A stretch of DNA of 64,000 bases from Methylococcaceae bacterium. Lineage in GTDB: Bacteria > Pseudomonadota > Gammaproteobacteria > Methylococcales > Methylomonadaceae. Where the stretch lies: assembly GCA_050303615.1 (NCBI GenBank), contig JBNLCC010000119.1:9812-73811 (forward strand), read 5' to 3'. Within the stretch, counting starts at the first letter, position 1, and each line of letters begins with the position of its first letter. The position numbers were made by a program, and so were the translations under genes. Below the pieces are notes generated by a model. That model did no database searches and had not been told where the DNA came from. It saw nothing but the letters and a program-made list of their open reading frames with translations. Shown one piece after another: positions 14,620 through 29,247 of this stretch.

Positions 14620-16065
14620 TCATAAAAAACGCTTTCTTTGGCTGGACGAAGGTATGGACATTGCTTCACGGTATTTTGCGATAGTCCGCCGTGCAACATT
14701 AATCCCTTTTTCCTTTAGTAAATCGGATATTTTACTATCACTTAACGGTTTTACCGGACTTTCATTGCCAATCAATTCCTTGATAAATGCTCTGATGGCT
14801 GTCGACGAACATTCACCGCCTCCTACAGTGGATACATGACTGGAAAAGAAATATTTAAATTCAAAAATTCCGTTCGGGGTGTGCATGTATTTCTGTGTCG
14901 TTACCCTGGATATGGTTGATTCATGCAACTCCAATTCTTCGGCAATATTTCTCAATACCATGGGTTTCATGGCAATTTGACCGTGCTCCAAAAATCCGGT
15001 TTGTTTTTCCACAATACTCCTCGCTACCCTCAACAAGGTATCATTCCGGCTATGCAGACTTTTAATAAACCAGCGGGCCTCCTGCAAGTGGTCCCGCATG
15101 CAGGAGTTGTCCTTACTGTTATCGGCTCTTTTGATCATTCCCGAATAAAAAGGATTGATACGCAATTTAGGTGCGATATCCGGGTTGAGCTCCACCTGCC
15201 AGACCCCCTTCACCTTGGTTACAAAAACGTCAGGGACTATATATTCGGAATCGTTGCTCTGCAATTGACTGCCGGGCTTTGGGTCCAGCGACCTGATTAA
15301 ATCGATCACTTTATTCAACTGGTGTTCGCTAATCCCCAGACGCTTAATGAGTTTTCCCTGGTCATGTGCGGCTAAAAGTTCAAGATGATTGGTGACTAAA
15401 TCGATCGCCATCTCCCTTTCATCGGTTGCTTCAGGTAATTGCAGCAACTGTCGGCGCAAACAATCGCTTAAATCAACGGCAACCACCCCGGCAGGATCTA
15501 AATTCTGCAGGCGATGTAATACTGCAAGCAGCTCATCCTGTTCCAGATCTTCCAGCTGGGACAATAACCCCTGATAAATTTCATCAATCGTGTTAATTAA
15601 ATAACCGTCCTCATTGACCGAGTCAATAATTGCCAATGCAATGGCATGATCCCGCTCGCTAAAGGGGAGCATTTCAAGCTGCCATATCAGATGATCTGAT
15701 AAGGTTTCCGATTTGCTGCGCTGCTGTTCGTAATCCGGCCCCTCAGCGGTACTGTTTATCGTGGCAACTTGAACGTTCTCGTAAATATCATCCCAGGTCG
15801 TATCGATAGGCAATTCTTCCGGAATTTCATTCTGAGAGCCTTCGCTGGTGGCCCGGTCAACATCGTTAGTTTTTGCCGGCCGATCATATTCTTCCTGAGC
15901 AGTGCCATCCTCCTCGACCACTTCCAGCATCATATTCGATTCTAAAGCCTGTTGGATCTCCAACTGTAAATCCAGGGTGGACAATTGCAACAATTTAATT
16001 GCCTGCTGCAATTGAGGCGTCATCGTAAGTTGCTGACCTAAACGAAGTTGTAAGGATTGTTTCAT
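14620..16065 (-). CDS. rpoN: RNA polymerase sigma-54 factor RpoN
   Basis: 481 aa. It has the Gln/Leu-rich region I (MKQSLQLRLGQQLTMTPQLQQAIKLLQLS) and the RpoN box ARRTIAKYR. Confidence 0.97.
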   Translation of the reverse strand: MKQSLQLRLGQQLTMTPQLQQAIKLLQLSTLDLQLEIQQALESNMMLEVVEEDGTAQEEYDRPAKTNDVDRATSEGSQNEIPEELPIDTTWDDIYENVQVATINSTAEGPDYEQQRSKSETLSDHLIWQLEMLPFSERDHAIALAIIDSVNEDGYLINTIDEIYQGLLSQLEDLEQDELLAVLHRLQNLDPAGVVAVDLSDCLRRQLLQLPEATDEREMAIDLVTNHLELLAAHDQGKLIKRLGISEHQLNKVIDLIRSLDPKPGSQLQSNDSEYIVPDVFVTKVKGVWQVELNPDIAPKLRINPFYSGMIKRADNSKDNSCMRDHLQEARWFIKSLHSRNDTLLRVARSIVEKQTGFLEHGQIAMKPMVLRNIAEELELHESTISRVTTQKYMHTPNGIFEFKYFFSSHVSTVGGGECSSTAIRAFIKELIGNESPVKPLSDSKISDLLKEKGINVARRTIAKYREAMSIPSSSQRKRFL

Positions 16066-16087
16066 ACTGTTATCTGTTCAAAGCTAA

Positions 16088-16813
16088 TTAAAGACTGAAA
16101 TGCTCACCGAGATAAACCTTCCTTACTTCTTCATTGGCGATAATTTCTTCCGCGCCGCCTTCAGCAATTACCTGACCGTCATTTAGGATGTAAGCGCGGT
16201 CACAAATACCCAATGTTTCGCGAACATTATGCTCAGTAATTAATATACCTATATTTCTTTCCCTTAAATGGTGAATAATTTTCTGGATGTCGATAACGGA
16301 AATTGGATCTACACCGGCAAACGGCTCATCAAGCAATATAAATTGCGGATCCGTCGCCAATGCCCTGGCAATTTCCACCCTGCGCCGCTCGCCTCCCGAT
16401 AACCCCATCGCCGCATTGTGGCGAATATAGGTTATACTGAATTCTTCCAATAATTCCTCAATAATTAATTCTACCTGTCCTTCCGTTAAATCGGAACGAA
16501 TTTGTAAAACGGCTCGCAAATTGTCTTCAACACTGAGTTTTCGGAAAATTGACGGTTCCTGGGGCAAATATCCAACGCCCATTCTGGCTCTCATATGCAT
16601 CGGATAATGGGTAACAACCTGATCATTGAGAATGATTTCCCCGTCATCCGCTTTGATCAATCCCACCATCATGTAAAAACTCGTTGTTTTCCCGGCGCCG
16701 TTGGGTCCCAATAACCCGACCACTTCACCTGCATCGACATGTAGCGATACGCCATTGACGACGTTACGCTTGCTATAATTTTTCATCAGGTGCTTTGCTG
16801 CCAGTCTAGTCAT
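16088..16813 (-). CDS. lptB: LPS export ABC transporter ATPase LptB
   Basis: 241 aa. It has the Walker [10 protein letters not shown] and the signature LSGGERRR. It is positioned between lptA and rpoN. Confidence 0.95.
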
Positions 16814-16814
16814 A

Positions 16815-17366
16815 TTATTTGGAGTTCGTTTTCTCTTTCGGGTTCAATATAACCCGGACTCTTTTAGTATCCGTCGCTTTCTCTCCCGCTCTTACAATGG
16901 CGTTTTTACTGTCGTATTTTATGATCTCGCTGGCGTAAGTATTATTTCCCTGCCAGACAATCGCATCATCGATTAAAATCAGTAATTCCTTATTGGGGTA
17001 ATATTCGGCTTTTAACGACTTGCCCCGCATCTCCTCTTTGCCTTCCGAAGGAATTTGCCTGAATCTGGCCGGTTTACCGGTTGCCACCATTTTCTCAACC
17101 CGGCCATTGCGGAGGTAAACAACCAATTTGTCGGACTTTACACGAAGTGTACCCTGCACCAAATCGACATTGCCCGTATAAATACTGACTTCTTTATTTT
17201 CATCGTAAGTAGCAGTATTGGAATCAATGGTGATCGGCTGATCCCTATCGCTTTTTAACGCGAAGGCAAGCGGATCATGAATGATAAAAAGTATTAATCC
17301 GTAAAAAAAAATTCTTGTCAATTTACATAACTTCATACTTGCTCCGAACATTGGAGATAAATTCAA
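16815..17366 (-). CDS. lptA: LPS transport periplasmic protein LptA
   Basis: 183-aa ORF with a signal peptide and an OstA-like fold pattern ([15 protein letters not shown]...). The true start may be the Met at 17336. Confidence 0.85.
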
Positions 17367-17886
17367 GATGAACCGGTTTTTGAAAAAACACTTTCATCCC
17401 GGTACCGGATACCCAATCCGGAGGAGTAATCAGTTCTGCCCATTCATCGGTTTCCGCATAATTTTCCTTCGGCCTGACTTTCAGATTGCTGGTATTCACC
17501 TTAACCGACCTGACTCCTGGTGCTTGCTCACGGACAATGAAAACCTTACCGTTTAAAAACAAATCCTGCCGATCTGCTGAAAGTAGACCGGTTTCCGAGC
17601 TGACGACCCACGGTGGCGTCTCCTCGTTGTAAAAAGTCATCACCGGGTTAAGCATTTCGATGGTATTGTCGTCGCTATAATGCATCATGCGGTCCGTCAC
17701 CAGTTCATTCTCGGGTTTTCCGGTCAAATCCATTTCAATTTTGTTGTAACCGATACTAAAGTAATCCGGGCTATGCGGCGGTACTTGCTTTATCACCGTC
17801 ACTTCACCTGCAAAATATTCCACAAGCCACCAGCTAACGACCCCCAGAACCAGCATATAATAATATTCTTTTTTATGTTCTATCAT
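17323..17886 (-). CDS. lptC: LPS export system protein LptC
   Basis: 187 aa with a single N-terminal TM segment. It is positioned between kdsC and lptA. Confidence 0.8.
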   Translation of the reverse strand: MIEHKKEYYYMLVLGVVSWWLVEYFAGEVTVIKQVPPHSPDYFSIGYNKIEMDLTGKPENELVTDRMMHYSDDNTIEMLNPVMTFYNEETPPWVVSSETGLLSADRQDLFLNGKVFIVREQAPGVRSVKVNTSNLKVRPKENYAETDEWAELITPPDWVSGTGMKVFFQKPVHLEFISNVRSKYEVM

Positions 17887-18431
17887 TATAAATATGACCG
17901 GATCACAGCGTCCATATTTCCCTGGGCCCGCATAATTAAGTCACAGACTTCCCTGACAGCGCCCTGGCCGCCAGGCAGGCAAGTGCACCATTGCACGTAG
18001 TCTTTAACCGCAAAATTGGCATCATGAACTGCAATTGACAAACCGACTCGACTCAATACCGGCAAATCAAGCAGATCATCGCCAACAAAGGCAACCTGTT
18101 CCTTATCAACAGCCAAAGCCTGCAAGAGTTCTTCAAAAGCCGCCAGTTTATTTTGCTGTCCTTGAAAAACATATTCAATACCCAAATTCTTCATTCTCAA
18201 CGCCACTGAGTCGGATTTTCTACCGGAAATTACCGCAACTTCGACACCGGTTTGACGCAACAGCTTAATTCCGTGACCGTCTCTGGCATGAAATGACTTA
18301 TACTCTTTGCCCCGATCATCAAAAAAAAGCTTACCGTCAGTCAGCACACCATCAACATCCAATATCAGTAATTTTATTTTTTTCGCTTTGTCAATGATCT
18401 GCTGCATTGTTAATGTTCGTTTTTGATTCAT
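17886..18431 (-). CDS. kdsC: KDO 8-phosphate phosphatase KdsC
   Basis: 181 aa. It has the HAD motif LLILDVDGVLTDG and the motif FVGDDLLDLP. Confidence 0.9.
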   Translation of the reverse strand: MNQKRTLTMQQIIDKAKKIKLLILDVDGVLTDGKLFFDDRGKEYKSFHARDGHGIKLLRQTGVEVAVISGRKSDSVALRMKNLGIEYVFQGQQNKLAAFEELLQALAVDKEQVAFVGDDLLDLPVLSRVGLSIAVHDANFAVKDYVQWCTCLPGGQGAVREVCDLIMRAQGNMDAVIRSYL

Positions 18432-18484
18432 TTATGCTGCTTGGTATTAAACACCGCCGCCATCACAGAATTACATTAGGGTAC

Positions 18485-19456
18485 TCAAATGATACCGGCA
18501 TTAATCAAATCATGCATATTCAGAGCGCCTATCACACATTGCGCATCATCCACCACCAATAACGCATTGATTTTTTTTTCCTGCATAATTTGCATCGCTT
18601 CGGCAGCCAGCGTTTGTTCCGAGATGACCGTGCAATTGCGGGTCATTACTTCCGAAATGACGGTATGTTGAAAATCCAAATTTTTTTCCAGCATGCGGCG
18701 TAAATCGCCATCGGTAAAGATTCCTACCACCCTCGATTGTTGATCGACAACAGCGGTCATGCCCAATTTCTTTTCTGTCATTTCCATCAAGGCATCTTTC
18801 AACATTGCCGTCTCGAACACAGCGGGTATTCCGGCTCCGGTATGCATCAAGTCGTCCACCACCAGCAATAACCGTTTTCCCAAGCTACCGCCCGGATGCG
18901 AAAGCGCAAAATCATGTTGCGTAAATCCCCTCGCCTCAAGCAGCGAAACAGCCAAAGCATCCCCCATCACCAAGGCCGCAGTGGTACTTGAGGTGGGAGC
19001 AAGACCTAAGGGGCAGGCTTCCTGCTCCACACCGACATCAATATGCACTGTAGAAAATCCGGCTAGTGCCGAATCAGGATTGCCTGTCATCGCTATCAAC
19101 GCCACCCCCAGACGCTTGATGATCGGCAATATGGTTAACAACTCAGTGGTTTCCCCGGAGTTGGACAAAGCCAAAACCACATCCTGGGTCGTTATCATAC
19201 CCAGATCACCATGACTGGCTTCGCCCGGATGCACAAAAAAAGCGGGTGTTCCGGTGCTCGCCAAAGTAGCGGCTATTTTACCGCCTATGTGCCCCGATTT
19301 GCCCATCCCGGTTACAACCACCCGGCCTTTACATGAAAGCATCAATTGGCAGGCGGCAACAAAATTCTCATTGATTCGTTCCGCAAGCGCAATAACCGAC
19401 CGGGACTCCAAATCGATCACCGTTAACGCGGATTGCTGCAGACTATGTTTATTCAT
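18485..19456 (-). CDS. kdsD: Arabinose-5-phosphate isomerase KdsD (SIS + CBS pair)
   Basis: It has the SIS motif VVVTGMGKSGHIG and a C-terminal CBS pair. I chose the start MNKHSLQQ at 19456 because the longer ORF (to 19558) would overlap the upstream gene. Confidence 0.9.
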   Translation of the reverse strand: MNKHSLQQSALTVIDLESRSVIALAERINENFVAACQLMLSCKGRVVVTGMGKSGHIGGKIAATLASTGTPAFFVHPGEASHGDLGMITTQDVVLALSNSGETTELLTILPIIKRLGVALIAMTGNPDSALAGFSTVHIDVGVEQEACPLGLAPTSSTTAALVMGDALAVSLLEARGFTQHDFALSHPGGSLGKRLLLVVDDLMHTGAGIPAVFETAMLKDALMEMTEKKLGMTAVVDQQSRVVGIFTDGDLRRMLEKNLDFQHTVISEVMTRNCTVISEQTLAAEAMQIMQEKKINALLVVDDAQCVIGALNMHDLINAGII

Positions 19457-19473
19457 TAGGTAAGCCTTTAACA

Positions 19474-20466
19474 CTAAGTATGCTGCACGGCGCTTTGATA
19501 AACGACCCATTGATAGGCACAATAGCAAATCAACAAAATAAGTCCTTCCCAACGGCAAATTCTGGCGTTACCGCGAAATCCGTAACCGAGTATAAATAAC
19601 AGCGCTGTCAACCCCAACATGACTGGAAAATCCCGTTCGACAACGTTGATATTGAGTACCCCGGGAGCAATAATTCCTGGCAGTGAATAAACTGCCAGCA
19701 AATTATACATATTCGAGCCGATAATATTGCCGATCGCCAAATCATCTTCTTTCTTCAAGACACTGGCAATCGACGCAGCTAATTCCGGTAAACTGGTTCC
19801 CAGGGCAACAATGGTCAAACCGATCACCAGATCGCTGACACCGAAATATTCAGCAATATTTACCGCCCCCCACACCAGCGCCCTTGAACTGAGCAGCAAG
19901 CCGGCCAGCCCCACAAAAAAATAAACCCATGCTTTTGTATGTGATAGTAATTCAGGAAGTTCGTCTTCCACCTCCCTGCTGAAAGGGTCGGTCTTCGATG
20001 CCTGTCTGGCGCTGCGAATCAACCACCACAAAAATATCACCAAGCCGGCCAACATAAGCAAACCATCAATGACATCCAAACCGTAATCGTACACAGCCAA
20101 CGCATAGCAGAAAATACTGGCAGTCATTAAAACGGGCAATTCCCTTTTGAGCATTTTTGAATGGACTGCAATCGGCGCAACCAAGGCGGTACAGCCGAGA
20201 ATCAGGCCAATATTAGCAATATTGGAGCCCAAAGCATTTCCTACGGCAAGCCCGGTTTTACCCTGCCAGGAAGCAAACGCCGAGACAAGAATTTCCGGGG
20301 CAGAGGTACCGAATCCGACAATAGTCAATCCGATAAGCAGCGAAGAAACGCCGTAATTTCTTGCAATCGATGCCGTTCCGATAACAAAACGATCGGCTGA
20401 ATAGACCAATATCACTAACCCAGCTAATAATGCTGATAAATTGACCCACATAATTTTCTGGTTCAA
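19474..20466 (-). CDS. CaCA-family Na+/Ca2+ antiporter (YrbG-like)
   Basis: 330 aa. It carries two alpha-repeat motifs (GFGTSAPE and ALGTSLPE) in a 10-TM protein, in the usual position upstream of kdsD. Confidence 0.85.
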   Translation of the reverse strand: MNQKIMWVNLSALLAGLVILVYSADRFVIGTASIARNYGVSSLLIGLTIVGFGTSAPEILVSAFASWQGKTGLAVGNALGSNIANIGLILGCTALVAPIAVHSKMLKRELPVLMTASIFCYALAVYDYGLDVIDGLLMLAGLVIFLWWLIRSARQASKTDPFSREVEDELPELLSHTKAWVYFFVGLAGLLLSSRALVWGAVNIAEYFGVSDLVIGLTIVALGTSLPELAASIASVLKKEDDLAIGNIIGSNMYNLLAVYSLPGIIAPGVLNINVVERDFPVMLGLTALLFILGYGFRGNARICRWEGLILLICYCAYQWVVYQSAVQHT

Positions 20467-20843: not shown

Positions 20844-21410
20844 TTAATCGGTTGAATGGGGCTGCGCCTCAGCATGCAAATCGTTCTTTTCCTCCAACTC
20901 GGGATGTCTTTTTCCCGAAGCCGCCTCGTTCCCTTGGATTTCCGCCTGAGATTCCGTCTGCTTTTCGTCTTTTGAAACACTGGGAGCTTCCAAATTCAAC
21001 TCGTCCCAACGGTCACGTAGTTTGTCACACCATGCGGCCAGCATGGTTTCATCCTTGGGAGGGAAAGCCAACAACTGATCCAATGAATGGTGCAGCGACT
21101 GATAACGTGCACTGGCATTACGATGGTTTTCAGCCTGTTCCGAATATTTTAGAAACGTCTGCAAAGAACTTAAAATAGCGCCTAACAACAGCAACATTCC
21201 GGCTATCATTTTCACCCAAAAATCCGGATTGTGAGTAATTGTAAAAAAAATGTAACTGGCAACAGACATCGAAATCAAGATTACCGGAATGCCTAATATA
21301 TGGTTCATCCGCCGTATCGAAATGGAACGCATATAATGTGAATTCAGCAATATACCAAGCTCATGACGCCACGTCTGTAGCAAATGTTTTTGTTCAATTT
21401 TCATAGCCAT
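20844..21410 (-). CDS. SLATT-like 2-TM protein (SMODS/SLOG-associated 2TM effector-like), stand-alone
   Basis: 188 aa. It has an N-terminal helix, two TM segments (ILGIPVILISMSVASYIFFTI and MIAGMLLLLGAILSSL), then LQTFLKYSEQAENHRNASARYQSL, which resembles the SLATT signature I recall. The tail is acidic and Lys-rich. Confidence 0.5.
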   Translation of the reverse strand: MAMKIEQKHLLQTWRHELGILLNSHYMRSISIRRMNHILGIPVILISMSVASYIFFTITHNPDFWVKMIAGMLLLLGAILSSLQTFLKYSEQAENHRNASARYQSLHHSLDQLLAFPPKDETMLAAWCDKLRDRWDELNLEAPSVSKDEKQTESQAEIQGNEAASGKRHPELEEKNDLHAEAQPHSTD

Positions 21411-21490: not shown

Positions 21491-21796
21491 CTATTTTAAA
21501 TATCGGCGGCTGCATGAATTTTTTATTTCAGTCCCCGCTGCCTCGCTTTCCACACCTGGAAGAAATGTCAAAAGGCACTGATTATACCGCCGTTTATTCT
21601 TAGATGGCGGAATCATGTTAAGATAAGTTTCTCTGCATATCCGAGTAATTTCACTAGTGACCCAATCATATTTCACTCCCTGCAGGTTTTCCAATACGCA
21701 TTGATCGTATTCATAGTTACTGTCAGCCGGGGATTGCCCGCTCGGCGAGAATAATAAAATAACCATTACCAAGTTAAAAACCATAGAATATCTCAT
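21491..21796 (-). CDS. Small secreted protein with internal 30-aa Cys-containing duplication
   Basis: 101 aa with a signal peptide. The two collinear repeats are YDQCVLENLQGVKYDWVTSEITRICRETYL and YNQCLLTFLPGVESEAAGTEIKNSCSRRYL. Confidence 0.5.
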   Translation of the reverse strand: MRYSMVFNLVMVILLFSPSGQSPADSNYEYDQCVLENLQGVKYDWVTSEITRICRETYLNMIPPSKNKRRYNQCLLTFLPGVESEAAGTEIKNSCSRRYLK

Positions 21797-22069: not shown

Positions 22070-23044
22070 TCAATAAATATGTCCAGTATCTGAATTGAGC
22101 TGTTGTCCTATTTTGACGCGTTCCAGAGGTGACGAAGGAATTTCGCCGATTTCTTCGATTTTCTGCAGCAACGGCAATAGTCCCTGTTTGTTGGCCAATT
22201 GAATACTTAACCCGGGCCGGGCATTGATCTCGAGCATCAGCGGTCCTAATGTTGAATCAAGCACAATATCAACACCGATATAATCCATTGAAACCAGCTC
22301 TTTACACCGGGCAGACAACAACAGAATATTTTCCCAGTAGGGAATTTCAAGATTCGTAATGGTATTGCCCGAATCCGGGTGTTCATCGACAATTTGGTTA
22401 TGCCAGACGCCGTTTAAAGTTTGACCGCCGGCGAGATTAATGCCCGCGCCTATCGCACCTTGATGCAGATTGGCTTTCCCGTCGGACATTCTGGTAGGCA
22501 ATCTCAGCATCGACATTAACGGTATGCCTTTAAACACAATGGTACGTATATCCGGGACACCCTGATAGCTTACCTGTTCAAATACCGGGTCAAAATTAAC
22601 CCGGTATTCAATCAGCGCCTTGTCCGGTTGACCGCCCAGGCTGTACATACCGCTCAGTATATTGGATATATGATGTCCTATCTCCGCTTGCGTCATTAAA
22701 ACGCCGTTTAATTTACGGTAGCGCCCCTTGCTCCGCCCCTTGATAATCAGAATTCCTTCTCCGCCACTGCCATGGGCCGGTTTAATTGCAAAATCCTGAC
22801 GGGTGTCGAGTATATCGGCTAACTGACCGACCTGGTATTCACTGTCGATGACCGCGTAAAGCTCGGGAACGGCAATACCTGCATCTATCGCCAGTTGCTT
22901 GGTAAGCAATTTATCGTCTACAAGCGGGTAATATTTCCTTGAATTGTAGCGCAAAATATACCCGCCGTTGCGCTGATTCATGCCCAAAAACCCCAATTCG
23001 CGCAACCTCCGGAAGGGTAATAAATAATTCATCCAGTTCATCAA
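22070..23044 (-). CDS. Alpha-L-glutamate-ligase-like (RimK-related) ATP-grasp protein
   Basis: 324 aa. ATP-grasp elements are FAIKPAHGSGGEGILII and DYIGVDIVLDSTLGPLMLEINARPG. It lies 4 nt downstream of the 7TM gene. Confidence 0.75.
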   Translation of the reverse strand: MMNWMNYLLPFRRLRELGFLGMNQRNGGYILRYNSRKYYPLVDDKLLTKQLAIDAGIAVPELYAVIDSEYQVGQLADILDTRQDFAIKPAHGSGGEGILIIKGRSKGRYRKLNGVLMTQAEIGHHISNILSGMYSLGGQPDKALIEYRVNFDPVFEQVSYQGVPDIRTIVFKGIPLMSMLRLPTRMSDGKANLHQGAIGAGINLAGGQTLNGVWHNQIVDEHPDSGNTITNLEIPYWENILLLSARCKELVSMDYIGVDIVLDSTLGPLMLEINARPGLSIQLANKQGLLPLLQKIEEIGEIPSSPLERVKIGQQLNSDTGHIY

Positions 23045-23048
23045 TCCA

Positions 23049-24569
23049 TCACTCTTTCAGCATCCCCCTAAAGCGCCACAGTTCGGTCAGGCGGTAACCC
23101 GTATAACGTCCTAACAACAAGGTAAAGGCGAGCAGTGCAAGTAATAATTCGGGAAAGACGAATATCAGGTGTTCAAGATACTCATTGCTCATCAGCAAAT
23201 AACCGAACGAAGCGATAAACAGCGTGCCGATCCCTTGCTGGATAGCTTCCCCAGGGCCGCGCTCCTCCCAAACCAGTGACATTCGCTCGATGGTCATGGC
23301 CATAATGACCATTGGGAACAGGGCGACCGATAACCCCCGGTATATGCCCAATTTATGACTTAACAGGCTGACCAGCAGCATCAGTAAAATCACAATAATC
23401 AGTACCGCTGCCAAACGGGGTACTAACAGCAGTTGCAGATATTCCAGATAAAAGCGCAACATCAAGCCGAACACAATAATTAAACTGAATAAGACCAATC
23501 CCCATGCCAATTCCGTTTCGCGGAATGCCAAGGCAATCAAAATAGGCATAAACGTACCTATACTTTTGATACCGACCACGTTGCGCAAGATCACGATCAA
23601 TAAAGCACCCAACGGTATCATCAACAATACTCTATAAACGTTTTGGGTTTGCACCGGTAAGTTGAATAATGAGAATTCCATGATCCTTGAATTGATTCTA
23701 TTGGCGCGTTGTTGGGCAACGACGGTCACGTCCTGATATTGTTTATAAACGGAAAATTCCACTTTTCCCGCTTTCCCGCCGGCAACGGTCAATAACGGTT
23801 GATCTCCGGTATGCCAAATCAGCGCATCGTCCGGAAAACCGATATCACCGGTATTGGGATCAAACGTAAGCCATTTGTCCCCATCATAAACCTGCAGCCA
23901 AGGCGTCAGTTTTCCGTGCCGAATACCGTCTTTTAGAATGAGTATGGCTACCTGTCTTGCCGGAATCCGGGCGCCCTGTAAAATGCTGATGATTCGCTCA
24001 ACCCAAAGCTCCGGTTTGTCGGCTCCTTCGCGCAGCAGTTGGATATTATCATCAGGACTGGCGCTATTCAGACGCAACAATAATTCATGGGTAAATGACT
24101 TGGTATCTGCCGATTTTCTGCGTACTTCGTCCAATAAGGCATTGACCACCGTCTGCATCATTTCAGGATATTGTTTCTTGGCAGGAAAGCTAACCTTTGC
24201 CACCGGTTTGGCTTGCTGATCGTCGGGACTTAATTGCATACGGTAATATAATACTTGAGAACCGTGCGGGCGGCGTAATGCCCATTGCACGGAACGACCT
24301 TGTTCATCTTCGTCCAAAGTCAAACCGTACCGGCCCGAAACGAAATCTTCATCTAGGATCATAAAACCGCTCGGTTTTTTCGGCAAAGCAAAATCGATTT
24401 TAGCCGGACCTTTGGTCGGTTTATAGGAGATTCTGGCCTCTACGGTCCAAACCTGGGTCTGCTCAGCCGGCAGCAACGGCAGCTTTAATTCGCTGACTTT
24501 GTAATAACACAAAACACTACTTAGCAGTATTAAAGCCGAAGCTAAAATTTTTACATGTAAATTCTTCAA
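23049..24569 (-). CDS. Inactive-transglutaminase-like periplasmic domain fused to a 7-TM module
   Basis: 506 aa. It has an N-terminal TM anchor, a soluble region of about 280 aa, and then 6-7 hydrophobic helices (aa about 310-500). Confidence 0.65.
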   Translation of the reverse strand: MKNLHVKILASALILLSSVLCYYKVSELKLPLLPAEQTQVWTVEARISYKPTKGPAKIDFALPKKPSGFMILDEDFVSGRYGLTLDEDEQGRSVQWALRRPHGSQVLYYRMQLSPDDQQAKPVAKVSFPAKKQYPEMMQTVVNALLDEVRRKSADTKSFTHELLLRLNSASPDDNIQLLREGADKPELWVERIISILQGARIPARQVAILILKDGIRHGKLTPWLQVYDGDKWLTFDPNTGDIGFPDDALIWHTGDQPLLTVAGGKAGKVEFSVYKQYQDVTVVAQQRANRINSRIMEFSLFNLPVQTQNVYRVLLMIPLGALLIVILRNVVGIKSIGTFMPILIALAFRETELAWGLVLFSLIIVFGLMLRFYLEYLQLLLVPRLAAVLIIVILLMLLVSLLSHKLGIYRGLSVALFPMVIMAMTIERMSLVWEERGPGEAIQQGIGTLFIASFGYLLMSNEYLEHLIFVFPELLLALLAFTLLLGRYTGYRLTELWRFRGMLKE

Positions 24570-24622
24570 ATCGGATACTCTTTATGTCTGCTGCAAACTA
24601 CTTTGACAGGGTATTTTTTTCA

Positions 24623-25180
24623 TTAGGGTTTTTTATGCTGTAGTTTGGTGGCGGGATCATTGCAGGCGCCTTCTTTATGCTTATCGCTGTGCATAAATAC
24701 AGATGAAGAATCAACCATGATATTATTTTGTAAAAACCGCCGCCCTAAAAGAACAGGATAATTGAAATTACTCCTGTCAGCCAGGGTAAATTCAGTTTTG
24801 TAGTAATGTCCGTCAATACAAAACGCTAATTCCACGACAGGGCGAATTACCGCAGGAAGGTTGTGGCGTTTTATCGATGTATTTCTAAGCAACGGGACTT
24901 CTATTCTGTGTTCCGCGCCTTTTTTTTTGCCCGACGGCAAAGTAAATTTAACCCATTCATCACCGTCACGCTCGAACCTTTCAATTTTCTCGGCATGTAT
25001 TGAAGAGGTTTTGGCACCGGTATCGAGTTTTGCCCTAAGTCGGATCTGCCACGGCGATAAAACCACCGATTCCAACCATCCGGTAATTAAGATTTGCTTC
25101 CCGTGTTCTGCGCCGACAGCTGTCGGGATCCAAAAAAATAACGATAATATATTAATAAGCAAAGAAAATTTTCGTTTCAT
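24623..25180 (-). CDS. Secreted retropepsin-like aspartic protease (DUF785 / 'ATP-dependent zinc protease' / RimB-like family)
   Basis: 185 aa with a signal peptide (…IPTAVGA/EHG). It has the D-T-G motif in AKLDTGAKTSS and the retropepsin-like LLGRRFL near the C-terminus. Confidence 0.7.
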   Translation of the reverse strand: MKRKFSLLINILSLFFWIPTAVGAEHGKQILITGWLESVVLSPWQIRLRAKLDTGAKTSSIHAEKIERFERDGDEWVKFTLPSGKKKGAEHRIEVPLLRNTSIKRHNLPAVIRPVVELAFCIDGHYYKTEFTLADRSNFNYPVLLGRRFLQNNIMVDSSSVFMHSDKHKEGACNDPATKLQHKKP

Positions 25181-25521
25181 AATTTTGTTACGTTTCTCTC
25201 CAAATAATTTTCATTTGTCATAAGCTGTTTTTATGCTAACCCGGACTGTTTCAGTGCTGAATGCAGCGTCATAACATAAATACGTTGAAGCATAGATTAA
25301 ACATGCCGTTTTTGATATAAGCAAGCAGATAAAGTTGCCAAAATTTTTCTGCAGCCTGGTTCAACTCATTGGGAACCAGTGGCAAAAAAGCGTTGCCGCG
25401 CTGCCGGATCCCAAAGTTCACTGGATAACTAATAACTGCCCCGACACATAATATATTGACTTTCCCGTCTCCAGTCATAGAAAATAGTCTGTTTTAACTC
25501 CCGGCATGTGCTCTGGATCAC

Positions 25522-26346
25522 ATGGATAAATGCGTCCCGAATAGTCAAAATATCGTTACCATCCGAGATCTGACGTTTTCTCGCGGCAACAATAAAATCT
25601 TCGACAATGTTTCCCTGCAGATTCAACGCGGCAAAATTACCGCGATTATGGGACCAAGCGGAACCGGTAAAACCACTTTGCTTAAATTGATCGGCGGTCA
25701 GCTTTATCCCGAACATGGCAGTGTCATTGTCAATGGCCTGGATGTCCATAAATTGCGTTTAAAAAATTTGTATAAATTACGTAAACGCATCGGCATGTTA
25801 TTTCAAAGCGGTGCGTTATTTACCGATATGAGCGTTTACGACAATGTTGCGTTTCCATTGAGAGAGCATACCCGACTGCCTGAATCGATGATCCGCACGC
25901 TGGTACTGATGAAATTACAAGCGGTAGGATTAAGGGGCGCGCGCAACCTTATGCCGAGTGAATTATCCGGCGGCATGGCCAGGCGGGTTGCGTTGGCGCG
26001 GGCAATCGCACTGGACCCGATGATGATCATGTACGACGAGCCGTTTACCGGACAGGACCCGATCTCAATGGGTGTTCTGGTCCATCTGATCAAGACGTTA
26101 AATGCCACGCTCGGACTGACCAGTATTATCGTATCCCACGATGTCCAGGAAACAGCCGCTATCGCCGATTATATTTATGTGTTATCGGAAGGTAAAATTG
26201 TCGGCCAAGGCACACCGGAACAAATCAATCGCTCCGATTCGGAATGGGTCAAGCAATTCATGAACGGAACACCTGACGGTCCGGTATGCTTTCATTATTC
26301 CAGCGACAACTACATTGACGACCTTTTTGCGTCTGCAAAACGATAA
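25522..26346 (+). CDS. mlaF: Phospholipid ABC transporter ATPase MlaF
   Basis: 274 aa. It has the Walker [10 protein letters not shown], the signature [13 protein letters not shown] and the Walker B IMYDEP. Confidence 0.9.
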
Positions 26347-26356
26347 TATCAGCAAT

Positions 26357-27139
26357 ATGAACCAGTTACTGCAAACTCTGGGAAATTTCACAATCAAGGC
26401 TTTTTCCAAAATCGGCCGCAGCACCTTTTTTTTATTTCATACATTAAGCGGCTTTAGTGATGTGCTGTTTCGCCCCGGACTTTTGCTGGTGCAAACCTAT
26501 TCGGTAGGGGTGCTATCCTTTTTAATTATCACCATATCGGGAATGTTTGTCGGCATGGTGCTGGGTTTGCAGGGCTATTATACACTTTCCGATTTTGGTG
26601 CCGAAGAGGCGCTTGGCGTGATGGTAGCAGCTTCCCTAGTACGAGAACTGGGCCCTGTAGTCACGGCGCTGTTATTTGCCGGACGCGCAGGCTCCGCCTT
26701 AACTGCGGAAATTGGCTTAATGAAGGCAACCGAACAACTGTCCGGCATGGAAATGATAGCCGTTGACCCGGTTAAACGCATCATTGCCCCGCGCTTTTTT
26801 GCCGGATTTTTCTCTATGCCGCTGCTCGCCGCTTTGTTCAGTATGATCGGTATCCTTGGCGGACATATTGTCGGCGTCGGTTTGCTGGGTGTAGACGACG
26901 GCTCCTACTGGTCACAAATGCAGGACACAATCGATTTTGACGACGACATTCTCAACGGTATCATTAAAAGCATTGTGTTTGGATTTATCACATCATGGAT
27001 TGCCCTGTTTGAAGGTTATGATGCCACGCCGACGTCTGAAGGAGTCAGCCGCGCTACAACCCGCACCGTCGTTAATTCCGCTTTTGCCGTTTTAGGCCTT
27101 GATTTCCTGTTAACTGCGTTAATGTTCGGAGAAGATTAA
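26357..27139 (+). CDS. mlaE: Phospholipid ABC transporter permease MlaE
   Basis: I chose the start [10 protein letters not shown] at 26357, which is after the mlaF stop at 26346. The protein is polytopic with the typical MlaE motif [20 protein letters not shown]. Confidence 0.9.
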
Positions 27140-27140
27140 A

Positions 27141-27617
27141 ATGCAGCATTCAAAAACTCTCGATACCCTGGTCGGCCTTTTTGTTGCATCGGGTATCGTC
27201 GCCCTGTTTTTCCTGGCAATGCAAGTCAGCAACCTGAGCTCTTTTATTGATAATAAAGACGGCTTTCATATTACCGCCCGCTTTGAAAATTCCGGCGGAC
27301 TTAAAGTGCGATCACCGGTTTCGGTCGCCGGTGTCAAAATCGGCAGGGTCAGCAACATATATTTCGATCAACAAACTTTCGAATCCGTTGTCGATATGTA
27401 TATCAACAAAAAATTCAATGAATTACCCGACGATACAACTGCCAGCATTTTTACCGCAGGTTTGCTTGGTGAGCAATATGTCAGTCTCGATCCGGGCGGT
27501 TCCGAAGAATTCCTGCATGACGGCAGTGAAATTGAAATAACCCAATCGGCCCTCGTTTTGGAACAATTAATCGGTCAGTTTCTGTTTAAGGAATCCGAAA
27601 AAGAAGATGAAAACTGA
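27141..27617 (+). CDS. mlaD: MCE-domain protein MlaD
   Basis: 158 aa with an N-terminal TM segment and an MCE domain (GLKVRSPVSVAGVKIGRV). Confidence 0.9.
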   Translation: MQHSKTLDTLVGLFVASGIVALFFLAMQVSNLSSFIDNKDGFHITARFENSGGLKVRSPVSVAGVKIGRVSNIYFDQQTFESVVDMYINKKFNELPDDTTASIFTAGLLGEQYVSLDPGGSEEFLHDGSEIEITQSALVLEQLIGQFLFKESEKEDEN

Positions 27618-27930
27618 TTTGCAAATCCGTGAACAACAACCGGGAAGATATCTGGTTGACGGCGAACTGACCTTTGCCACAATAGACCGTAAAACCATTA
27701 AAGCATTGCCCTTTCCTAAGCAAATGCAGCAGATTACACTTGATTTAAACCAAGTGACGACAACCGATAGCGCCGGTTTGGCACTGATTATGGAATGGAT
27801 AAAATTTGCCCGACAAGCGAAAATACAATTAACATTTGAAAATATTCCCGAACAACTGGTAGCGATCGCCAAACTCAGCGGATTGGAAAGCATGATCCGT
27901 CAGAAAAACTACGATAGACCGTTATCATAA
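27607..27930 (+). CDS. mlaB: STAS-domain protein MlaB
   Basis: 107 aa. It has the STAS pattern LDLNQVTTTDSAGLALIMEWIKFARQ. No mlaC lies between mlaD and mlaB. Confidence 0.75.
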   Translation: MKTDLQIREQQPGRYLVDGELTFATIDRKTIKALPFPKQMQQITLDLNQVTTTDSAGLALIMEWIKFARQAKIQLTFENIPEQLVAIAKLSGLESMIRQKNYDRPLS

Positions 27931-27954
27931 TCCGGTACCCGGCCGGGCTAATAA

Positions 27955-29247
<1,293 letters not shown>

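Follow-up and report, generated by a model that had tools for sequence, protein, structure and literature searches.

A very probable rloABC operon in a gammaproteobacterium related to Methylococcales and a tentative mechanism for its three products

In a 64-kb stretch of DNA from a Methylococcaceae bacterium (64,000 nucleotides of contig JBNLCC010000119.1, hereafter called the window), three co-directional, adjoining open reading frames (ORFs) occupy positions 22070-25180 of the minus strand and code, in the order A-B-C, for a secreted retropepsin-like aspartic endopeptidase, a membrane protein and a cytoplasmic ATP-grasp protein. We are nearly certain that this trio is an ortholog of the rloA-rloB-rloC operon of Pseudomonas aeruginosa and that its host is a gammaproteobacterium related to Methylococcales. 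The operon has already been described and named, and the window contains an ordinary copy of this widely distributed gene set. An earlier reading of the DNA without database searches (the sequence-only reading) had called the trio uncharacterised and lacking a defined substrate or function. The first label is outdated by the functional study of Lormand et al. 2025 (PMC12239564), which covers exactly these three genes. The second statement holds in part: cleavage by RloA and mutant phenotypes have been published (PMC12239564), whereas the physiological substrate and the activities of RloB and RloC are not defined in the literature. As a whole, the earlier interpretation is partly supported.

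Lormand et al. 2025 (mBio 16:e00872-25, PMC12239564) introduced the name rlo, for "retropepsin-like osmotic stress tolerance", with the rloA-rloB-rloC operon of P. aeruginosa PA14 (PA14_41690/41710/41730; cluster PA1766-PA1768 in strain PAO1). Crystal structures of RloA proteins, namely P. fluorescens RloA and P. aeruginosa RloA2, were solved (PDB 9G58 and 9G59). In vitro, RloA cuts runs of at least eight glutamates, with D48 as catalytic residue and K46, R114 and R137 coordinating the substrate. A mutant lacking all three rloA paralogs died under hypo-osmotic stress and did not grow in salt-free lysogeny broth, and the loss of the three proteins also disturbed biofilm formation, antibiotic (beta-lactam) tolerance and cell shape. 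These defects were suppressed by deletion of rloB or rloC. A gene encoding poly-glutamate (polyE) is absent in Pseudomonas, and no such run occurs in the periplasmic proteome of P. aeruginosa. The orthologs of Vibrio cholerae are controlled by the cell-wall-damage regulator VxrAB (PMC12239564). Transposon insertions in PA1766-PA1768 were also found in an exopolysaccharide suppressor screen, and the amidoligase survey of Iyer et al. 2009 is cited by PMC12096838 regarding the protein family of the trio. Our literature search found no later paper that defines the Rlo substrate.

The trio of the window resembles the P. aeruginosa operon in its gene order, its Pfam architectures, the DTGA site, the basic channel residues and the periplasm-type cysteine pair; in addition, its RloB matches the NCBIfam RloB model from end to end, and its RloC falls into TIGR02291. 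The assignment to rloABC is based on the retention of the AKLDTGA motif, R113, R136 and the periplasmic-type cysteine pair of the protease, all of which are conserved in 81 orthologs (the window and 80 related loci). The window copy differs in that its host is related to Methylococcales, in that it scores under the Pseudomonas-specific NCBIfam cutoffs, and in that the 64 kb contain no visible paralog of the RloA2 or RloA3 type. The features on which the sequence-only reading was built (co-directional genes with 53- and 4-nucleotide spacers, signal peptide, DTG and LLGRRFL motifs and membrane topology) are all present, and its domain calls were borne out by hidden Markov model searches, matches to solved structures and AlphaFold/Foldseek comparisons. 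Its division of the three proteins between periplasm, membrane and cytoplasm likewise agrees with the signal peptide of RloA, the transmembrane (TM) layout of RloB and the lack of TM segments in RloC.

The rlo Genes Form a Conserved Three-Gene Unit

Conservation of the trio was analysed in 80 related gammaproteobacterial loci, which were obtained from a scan of one-genome-per-species contigs and span Methylococcales, Methylophaga, Piscirickettsiaceae, Salinisphaera, Nevskiales, Spongiibacteraceae, Moraxellaceae and Pseudomonadales. The RloB proteins of these loci share 51-73% identity with that of the window. When RloB was used as the query against protein sequences, over 6,600 homologs were scored; among those with a name, the closest is from Methylomarinum vadi (71% identity), followed by homologs from Methylomicrobium, Methylocaldum and Nitrosococcus. 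By tblastn, an rloA homolog was detected directly upstream of rloB in 80 of the 80 loci and an rloC homolog directly downstream in 79 of them, the single miss (L054) being a contig that ends 88 nucleotides past rloB. The three-gene arrangement is far above chance, and the co-conservation on which the sequence-only reading made its claim depend is confirmed.

All-against-all clustering of ORFs of at least 70 amino acids from the 81 loci revealed no fourth conserved gene: beyond lineage-specific neighbours, only the trio itself and antisense shadow ORFs were shared. When the flanking intergenic regions of the window were compared with the related loci by tblastx and blastn, no significant match that could represent a precursor peptide was obtained (best E about 0.07). 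The rloABC cassette is a self-contained three-gene unit in variable genomic contexts, because no other gene is shared and the flanks found in the window are not kept in the related loci.

RloA Is a Predicted Periplasmic Retropepsin-Like Protease

The rloA-like gene (24623-25180, minus strand) encodes a protein of 185 amino acids, which was identified by matches to Pfam PF05618 (9.2e-38), to NCBIfam models and to PDB entries. The NCBIfam models for RloA3, RloA, RloA2 and RimB gave E-values from 5.8e-39 to 1.8e-24, all of them under the species-level cutoffs; the RimB model, for example, scored 86 bits with a cutoff of 200. Among solved structures, the best matches were 9g59 (1.4e-19), 9g58 (1.2e-18) and 2pma of Legionella (1.1e-11).

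A signal peptide is predicted for residues 1-24 (MKRKFSLLINILSLFFWIPTAVGA, followed by E; 25109-25180, minus strand) on the basis of hydropathy and a VGA cleavage-type motif. The N-terminus is basic, a hydrophobic core extends over residues 5-23, and cleavage would occur between AVGA and E. No lipobox cysteine was found in the signal peptide. The catalytic DTG motif (D53-T54-G55; 25016-25024, minus strand) lies within AKLDTGA, is followed by alanine and is present in a single copy per chain; therefore, a homodimer is required for activity. In the 81 orthologs, AKLDTGA is at least 90% conserved except for its threonine (70-90%). A second retropepsin motif, LLGRRFL, is located at residues 144-150.

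AKLDTGA and the R-P-V and D-R-S motifs of the protein align to 9g58 and 9g59, with R113 and R136 being the arginines of the latter two motifs. By offset of the numbering, K51, R113 and R136 appear to correspond to the polyE-coordinating residues K46, R114 and R137 of the P. aeruginosa protein, and D53 to the catalytic D48. The protein has two cysteines, C121 after the flap region and C173 in the C-terminal tail, which correspond to the disulfide pair specific to periplasmic orthologs (PMC12239564). K51, D53, R113, R136 and R147 as well as the C121/C173 pair are each at least 90% conserved in the 81 orthologs.

RloB Combines a Predicted Inactive Transglutaminase-Like Domain With a Highly Conserved Membrane Domain

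The rloB-like gene (23049-24569, minus strand) encodes a protein of 506 amino acids with a first TM segment, a periplasmic inactive transglutaminase-like domain, seven further TM segments (7TM) and a basic cytoplasmic tail. It matches PF14400 (2.6e-52) and PF14402 (4.7e-107), and its residues 3-506 align to positions 5-508 of the 508 positions of the NCBIfam model "osmotic stress tolerance membrane protein RloB" (2.7e-143). The score of 478 bits is below the 900-bit cutoff of this 'exception' model. The AlphaFold2 model (mean predicted local distance difference test (pLDDT) score 81) consists of an N-terminal helix, a beta-sandwich, an alpha/beta core and a helical membrane bundle. TM1 covers approximately residues 4-26 and a hydrophobic block extends from 314 to 487; in the predicted topology, the transglutaminase-like domain is periplasmic and the basic tail cytoplasmic.

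The periplasmic domain (residues 27-313, 287 amino acids; 23631-24491, minus strand) comprises the beta-sandwich followed by a transglutaminase-like core without a nucleophile. In Foldseek, the soluble part resembled 3isr, a transglutaminase-like putative cysteine protease (E 3e-9). The domain is apparently catalytically dead as a transglutaminase, its Cys-His-Asp triad not being kept, because the only cysteine of the protein is C21 in TM1 and the triad-equivalent positions are not conserved. These positions, as mapped with the Transglut_core consensus, are occupied by P/E/L (Cys) and T (His) and are 27-52% conserved. A residual Ser/His catalytic site was considered and rejected: S153 and D155 are invariant and are located in helices ahead of the core, and the triad-equivalent positions are not conserved.

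The 7TM domain (residues 314-487; 23109-23630, minus strand) shows a mean identity of 74% across the 81 orthologs and the C-terminal tail 78%, compared to 48-50% for the periplasmic domain. These two regions are the most conserved parts of the trio and a hot-spot of selection. Invariant charged residues of the 7TM domain include R329, R350, E351, R372, R385, E428, R429, E436 and E474. In the tail (residues 488-506, GRYTGYRLTELWRFR...; 23052-23108, minus strand), which contains five K/R and two D/E residues, R488, Y489, Y492, R493, E496, R499 and R501 are at least 97% conserved. The charged and conserved 7TM domain and tail fit a catalytic, transport or docking core, and the tail is a candidate docking or polyanion-binding site. 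Neither phmmer nor a profile search matched any PDB chain to the 7TM domain. The C-terminus of RloB was also considered as a glutamylation acceptor in the style of RimK/RpsF. This was rejected, as the last residue varies among 80 orthologs (S, G, R, E, P, A and others) and a conserved acidic end is lacking; given this variation at the terminal position, RloB itself probably does not serve as the acceptor of glutamylation.

RloC Is an ATP-Grasp Protein Structurally Related to RimK

The rloC-like gene (22070-23044, minus strand) encodes a cytoplasmic ATP-grasp protein of the 'alpha-L-glutamate ligase-like' type, with 324 amino acids if translation starts at a TTG codon. It matches PF14397 (1.9e-91) and, above the cutoff, TIGR02291 "alpha-L-glutamate ligase-like" (2.8e-135; 450 bits versus a cutoff of 314 bits), and it contains no TM or hydrophobic segment. 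Its AlphaFold2 model (mean pLDDT 86) has an ATP-grasp fold, for which the best Foldseek match was 5zct, the poly-alpha-L-glutamate synthetase RimK (3e-11), followed by ArgX/LysX, cyanophycin synthetase and Ddl. The Mg/ATP motifs KP.HGSGG.G, NLHQGA and LE.NARPG are invariant in the alignments. Residue 97 of RimK aligns to residue 42 of RloC. Residues 1-60 of RloC, modelled at lower confidence (pLDDT about 68-92), take the place of the alpha/beta N-domain that helps to bind the acceptor in RimK-type ATP-grasp enzymes. These N-terminal approximately 60 residues may be the meeting point with RloB or with the acceptor.

The kinship to RimB and RimK, which had been recognised from the sequence, was confirmed by the RimB model match of RloA and by RimK as the top structural match of RloC, and it raises the question whether the trio is an ordinary RimABK-type module for glutamylation of ribosomal protein S6. 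RimABK of Pseudomonas and Escherichia coli likewise combines a retropepsin-like, glutamate-specific endopeptidase (RimB) with an ATP-grasp ligase (RimK) from the structural class of RloC, and the poly-alpha-L-glutamate synthesised by RimK is cut by RimB (PMC11957791). RimB is a homolog of RloA, and RimK is a distant relative of RloC. However, the Rim proteins are wholly cytoplasmic and have no membrane partner, whereas RloA carries both a signal peptide and the disulfide pair of the periplasmic type, and the trio includes the membrane protein as an obligatory third partner. RloC lacks a RimK-like N-terminal domain and missed both RimK models by far (TIGR00768, 43.5 bits with a cutoff of 143.4; PRK10446, 15.4 with a cutoff of 331). 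Furthermore, none of the adjacent genes gave an EAL-domain (RimA-like) match, and a rimB deletion was not observed to interact genetically with rloA mutants (PMC12239564). Membership in the RimABK group was rejected as highly improbable, being effectively refuted by the signal peptide, the disulfide pair, the RimK scores and the membrane partner.

A second known system with a related ligase is the LysW-LysX/ArgX carrier system, since ArgX and LysX, which ligate onto the C-terminal glutamate of a protein, rank near the top of the structural matches of RloC. It differs from rlo in being a cytoplasmic biosynthetic pathway, and neither a LysW-like carrier gene nor a conserved small ORF is found beside the trio.

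A Proposed Mechanism of Synthesis, Presentation and Trimming

We propose that RloC synthesises, RloB presents and RloA trims a glutamate-rich product. RloC, as a member of the RimK/LysX structural class, would use ATP to form an alpha-linked glutamate-rich chain, either free or on an acceptor, and would act where RloB faces the cytoplasm. RloB would take over the product with its 7TM domain and basic tail and either pass it through the inner membrane or present it on the far side, with the nucleophile-less transglutaminase-like domain serving as a binding module rather than as an enzyme. RloA, exported via its signal peptide, stabilised by a C121-C173 disulfide and forming a homodimer, would cut the polyanionic chain in the periplasm. 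The balance between synthesis and trimming would then determine envelope homeostasis, i.e., hypo-osmotic tolerance, cell shape and beta-lactam tolerance, and uncut product would be harmful. We give this mechanism close to an even chance of being correct, and the rlo identity and the mechanism taken together appear evenly poised between right and wrong. The trans-membrane peptide ligation and processing device that was suggested in the sequence-only reading agrees with the model drawn for the published rlo system.

Several observations lead to this proposal. Because the triple rloA mutant recovers when rloB or rloC is deleted, RloB and RloC should produce or drive the agent that becomes harmful in the absence of RloA. 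RloC falls into a structural class whose members polymerise amino acids or lengthen C-termini. And because Pseudomonas has no polyE gene and no run of at least six D/E residues is present in any frame of the 64-kb window, the substrate should be non-ribosomal and made by a ligase. The absence of such a run in the window also ruled out a genome-encoded polyE substrate nearby. That RloC makes poly-glutamate, that RloB exports it and that this also applies to the organism of the window are inferences.

A comparable layout is known from the Gram-positive poly-gamma-glutamate system PgsBCA/CapBCA with CapD/PgdS, in which a cytoplasmic-face amide ligase, membrane extrusion and an extracytoplasmic cutting enzyme cooperate. 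The analogy is functional only: PgsB is a Mur-ligase-type enzyme and not an ATP-grasp protein, the polymer is gamma-linked, and the proteins are unrelated to RloA, RloB and RloC.

Several points weigh against our reading of the trio. At the level of identity, the NCBIfam RloA and RloB models were matched only below their cutoffs, and for this reason the orthology rests on architecture and synteny and not on an equivalog call. With respect to the ligase, the sequence similarity between RloC and RimK is weak (E 0.013 versus PDB), is mostly confined to the C-terminal Mg/ATP motif, and an identity of 24% has been reported (PMC12239564); the N-terminal approximately 40-60 residues of RloC form short helices in the model instead of a RimK-like N-terminal domain, and a specificity of RloC for glutamate is putative. 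A poly-glutamate or glutamylated molecule has so far not been detected in vivo for the rlo system. Single rloB and rloC mutants show phenotypes of their own (PMC12239564), so that the product is not merely a toxic by-product. Finally, the top 50 Foldseek matches of the full-length RloB model include no credible transporter or membrane-protein fold, and the published epistasis fits equally well with regulation, in which RloA restrains RloB and RloC.

The last two points favour the main rival of the synthesis and trimming mechanism, a trans-membrane signalling system in which the 7TM protein RloB acts as a sensor that is kept off by RloA, its pseudo-transglutaminase domain binding a ligand or being the target of RloA. 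Without RloA, RloB would over-activate RloC, which would modify a cytoplasmic target in the way RimK does with RpsF, and to a harmful excess. Negative regulation explains the suppression of the triple rloA mutant by loss of rloB or rloC as well as product degradation does; conservation is strongest in the 7TM domain and cytoplasmic tail, which is what a transducer would be expected to show, and the nearest structural relatives of RloC (RimK and LysX/ArgX) modify protein C-termini. However, the basic channel of RloA and its strict need for at least eight glutamates call for a periplasmic polyE substrate, and the periplasmic domain of RloB has no such run. Its sole acidic patch is DEDE in LTLDEDEQ, whose consensus positions are mostly variable in the homologs. 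Neither the window nor the periplasmic proteome of P. aeruginosa offers a run of even six D/E residues, and no conserved gene for a cytoplasmic target is linked to the trio. We therefore consider signalling unlikely, though it is the strongest competitor of the proposed synthesis and trimming.

Genomic Context of the rlo Genes in the Window

In the window, the trio is flanked by yrbG-kdsD-kdsC-lptC-lptA-lptB-rpoN on one side and by the divergent genes mlaF-mlaE-mlaD-STAS(MlaB-like)-murA on the other side. These envelope blocks (rpoN to yrbG at 14620-20466 and mlaF to murA at 25522-29247) enclose the rlo cassette together with two small genes. In none of the 80 related loci was the trio seen with such flanks, only generic ABC ATPases with approximately 28% identity being found there, and a functional linkage of the trio to the flanking lpt, kds, mla and murA genes was rejected because the flanks are not conserved. 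A different setting is found in about 25-30 Methylococcaceae loci (e.g., L009, 85-5179), in which rpoC and a gene for a di-haem cytochrome c immediately precede rloABC.

The position of the trio between lpt/kds and mla/murA genes would suit a role in the modification of an envelope glycan or lipid-linked precursor. According to this alternative, RloC adds amino acids, possibly glutamate, to peptidoglycan, exopolysaccharide or a lipid-linked intermediate, RloB flips or scaffolds this intermediate, and RloA removes or shortens the peptide part in the periplasm. The Pfam name of PF14397 is 'sugar-transfer associated ATP-grasp', D-Ala-D-Ala ligases are among the structural matches of RloC, the Pseudomonas phenotypes concern cell shape, beta-lactam sensitivity and biofilm, and the V. 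cholerae orthologs are under VxrAB control (PMC12239564). On the other hand, no glycosyltransferase or polysaccharide gene is conserved beside the trio in the 80 loci, and the envelope-gene neighbourhood of the window is not conserved elsewhere. In addition, the endopeptidase RloA needs long glutamate runs, which are absent from known decorations of peptidoglycan and exopolysaccharide. We regard this alternative as quite improbable.

The two small genes lie downstream of rloC. Directly following rloC, a gene at 21491-21796 (minus strand) encodes a VF_A0006-family protein of 101 amino acids with four cysteines and a hydrophobic N-terminus (NF041602, 1.1e-16, just under the cutoff). The next gene (20844-21410, minus strand) encodes an orphan SLATT_4 protein with two TM segments (NF033632, 5.4e-29; PADLOC '2TM effector' models, up to 6.5e-14); none of the adjacent genes was recognised as a nucleotide cyclase, SMODS or SLOG partner. 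Both genes are absent beside the trio in 80 of the 80 related loci, and because of this absence the SLATT_4 gene looks like a lineage-specific insertion.

The match of the gene at 20844-21410, two genes downstream of the trio, to SLATT_4 and PADLOC 2TM effector models, together with the varying context of the trio between genomes, could indicate a mobile or anti-phage defence island. The PADLOC models match none of the three trio proteins, however, the SLATT and four-cysteine genes do not accompany rlo elsewhere, and the published phenotypes concern envelope physiology, not phage defence. This explanation has very little probability and was effectively refuted by the lack of co-occurrence.

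On the other side of the trio, mlaD (27141-27617, plus strand) overlaps the STAS-domain gene (27607-27930, plus strand) by 11 nucleotides within 27141-27930, and no ORF of the size of mlaC is present between them. The gene order in E. coli is mlaFEDCB. In the host of the window, MlaC may be encoded elsewhere in the genome.

Start Sites and Promoter Region

The start codon of rloB is TTG, and the deduced N-terminus MKNLHVK is common to homologs. The spacer between rloA and rloB is 53 nucleotides long, and a Shine-Dalgarno-like AAAGAG is located 7 nucleotides ahead of the rloB TTG. For rloC, the spacer to rloB is 4 nucleotides with the TTG start and 7 nucleotides with the ATG of the next codon at 23041. 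A database protein identical to RloC (P0121) has 323 amino acids and starts at this ATG, and for this reason ATG 23041 is likely to be the true start of rloC (323 amino acids). Translational coupling of rloB and rloC fits with the 4-nucleotide and the 7-nucleotide spacer alike.

The divergent intergenic region between rloA and mlaF (25181-25521) is, by its position between the genes, the presumed promoter region of the operon. Its sigma-70-like matches are weak and no more frequent than in shuffled sequence, and scans for promoters and terminators gave nothing above the level of shuffled sequence. The region showed no conservation in comparison to the related loci.

Implications for Envelope Biology

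In P. aeruginosa, the rlo system is needed for envelope integrity, biofilm formation and beta-lactam tolerance. The present analysis adds constraints on how it may work: the cassette is strictly limited to three genes, and neither a fourth conserved partner nor a precursor ORF nor an encoded acidic substrate goes with them; selection has its hot-spot in the 7TM domain and the basic tail of RloB; and the C-terminus of RloB is not a conserved acidic acceptor. A further-reaching idea, which we hold to be possible and rather doubtful, is that RloC and RloB form a new type of synthase-exporter for a periplasmic poly-alpha-glutamate or a polyglutamylated carrier, that RloA sets the chain length, and that the polymer acts as a fixed-charge osmotic buffer or envelope regulator. 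If this were true, the polymer would have a role comparable to that of osmoregulated periplasmic glucans, and the 7TM domain would represent a previously unrecognised polypeptide-translocating fold.

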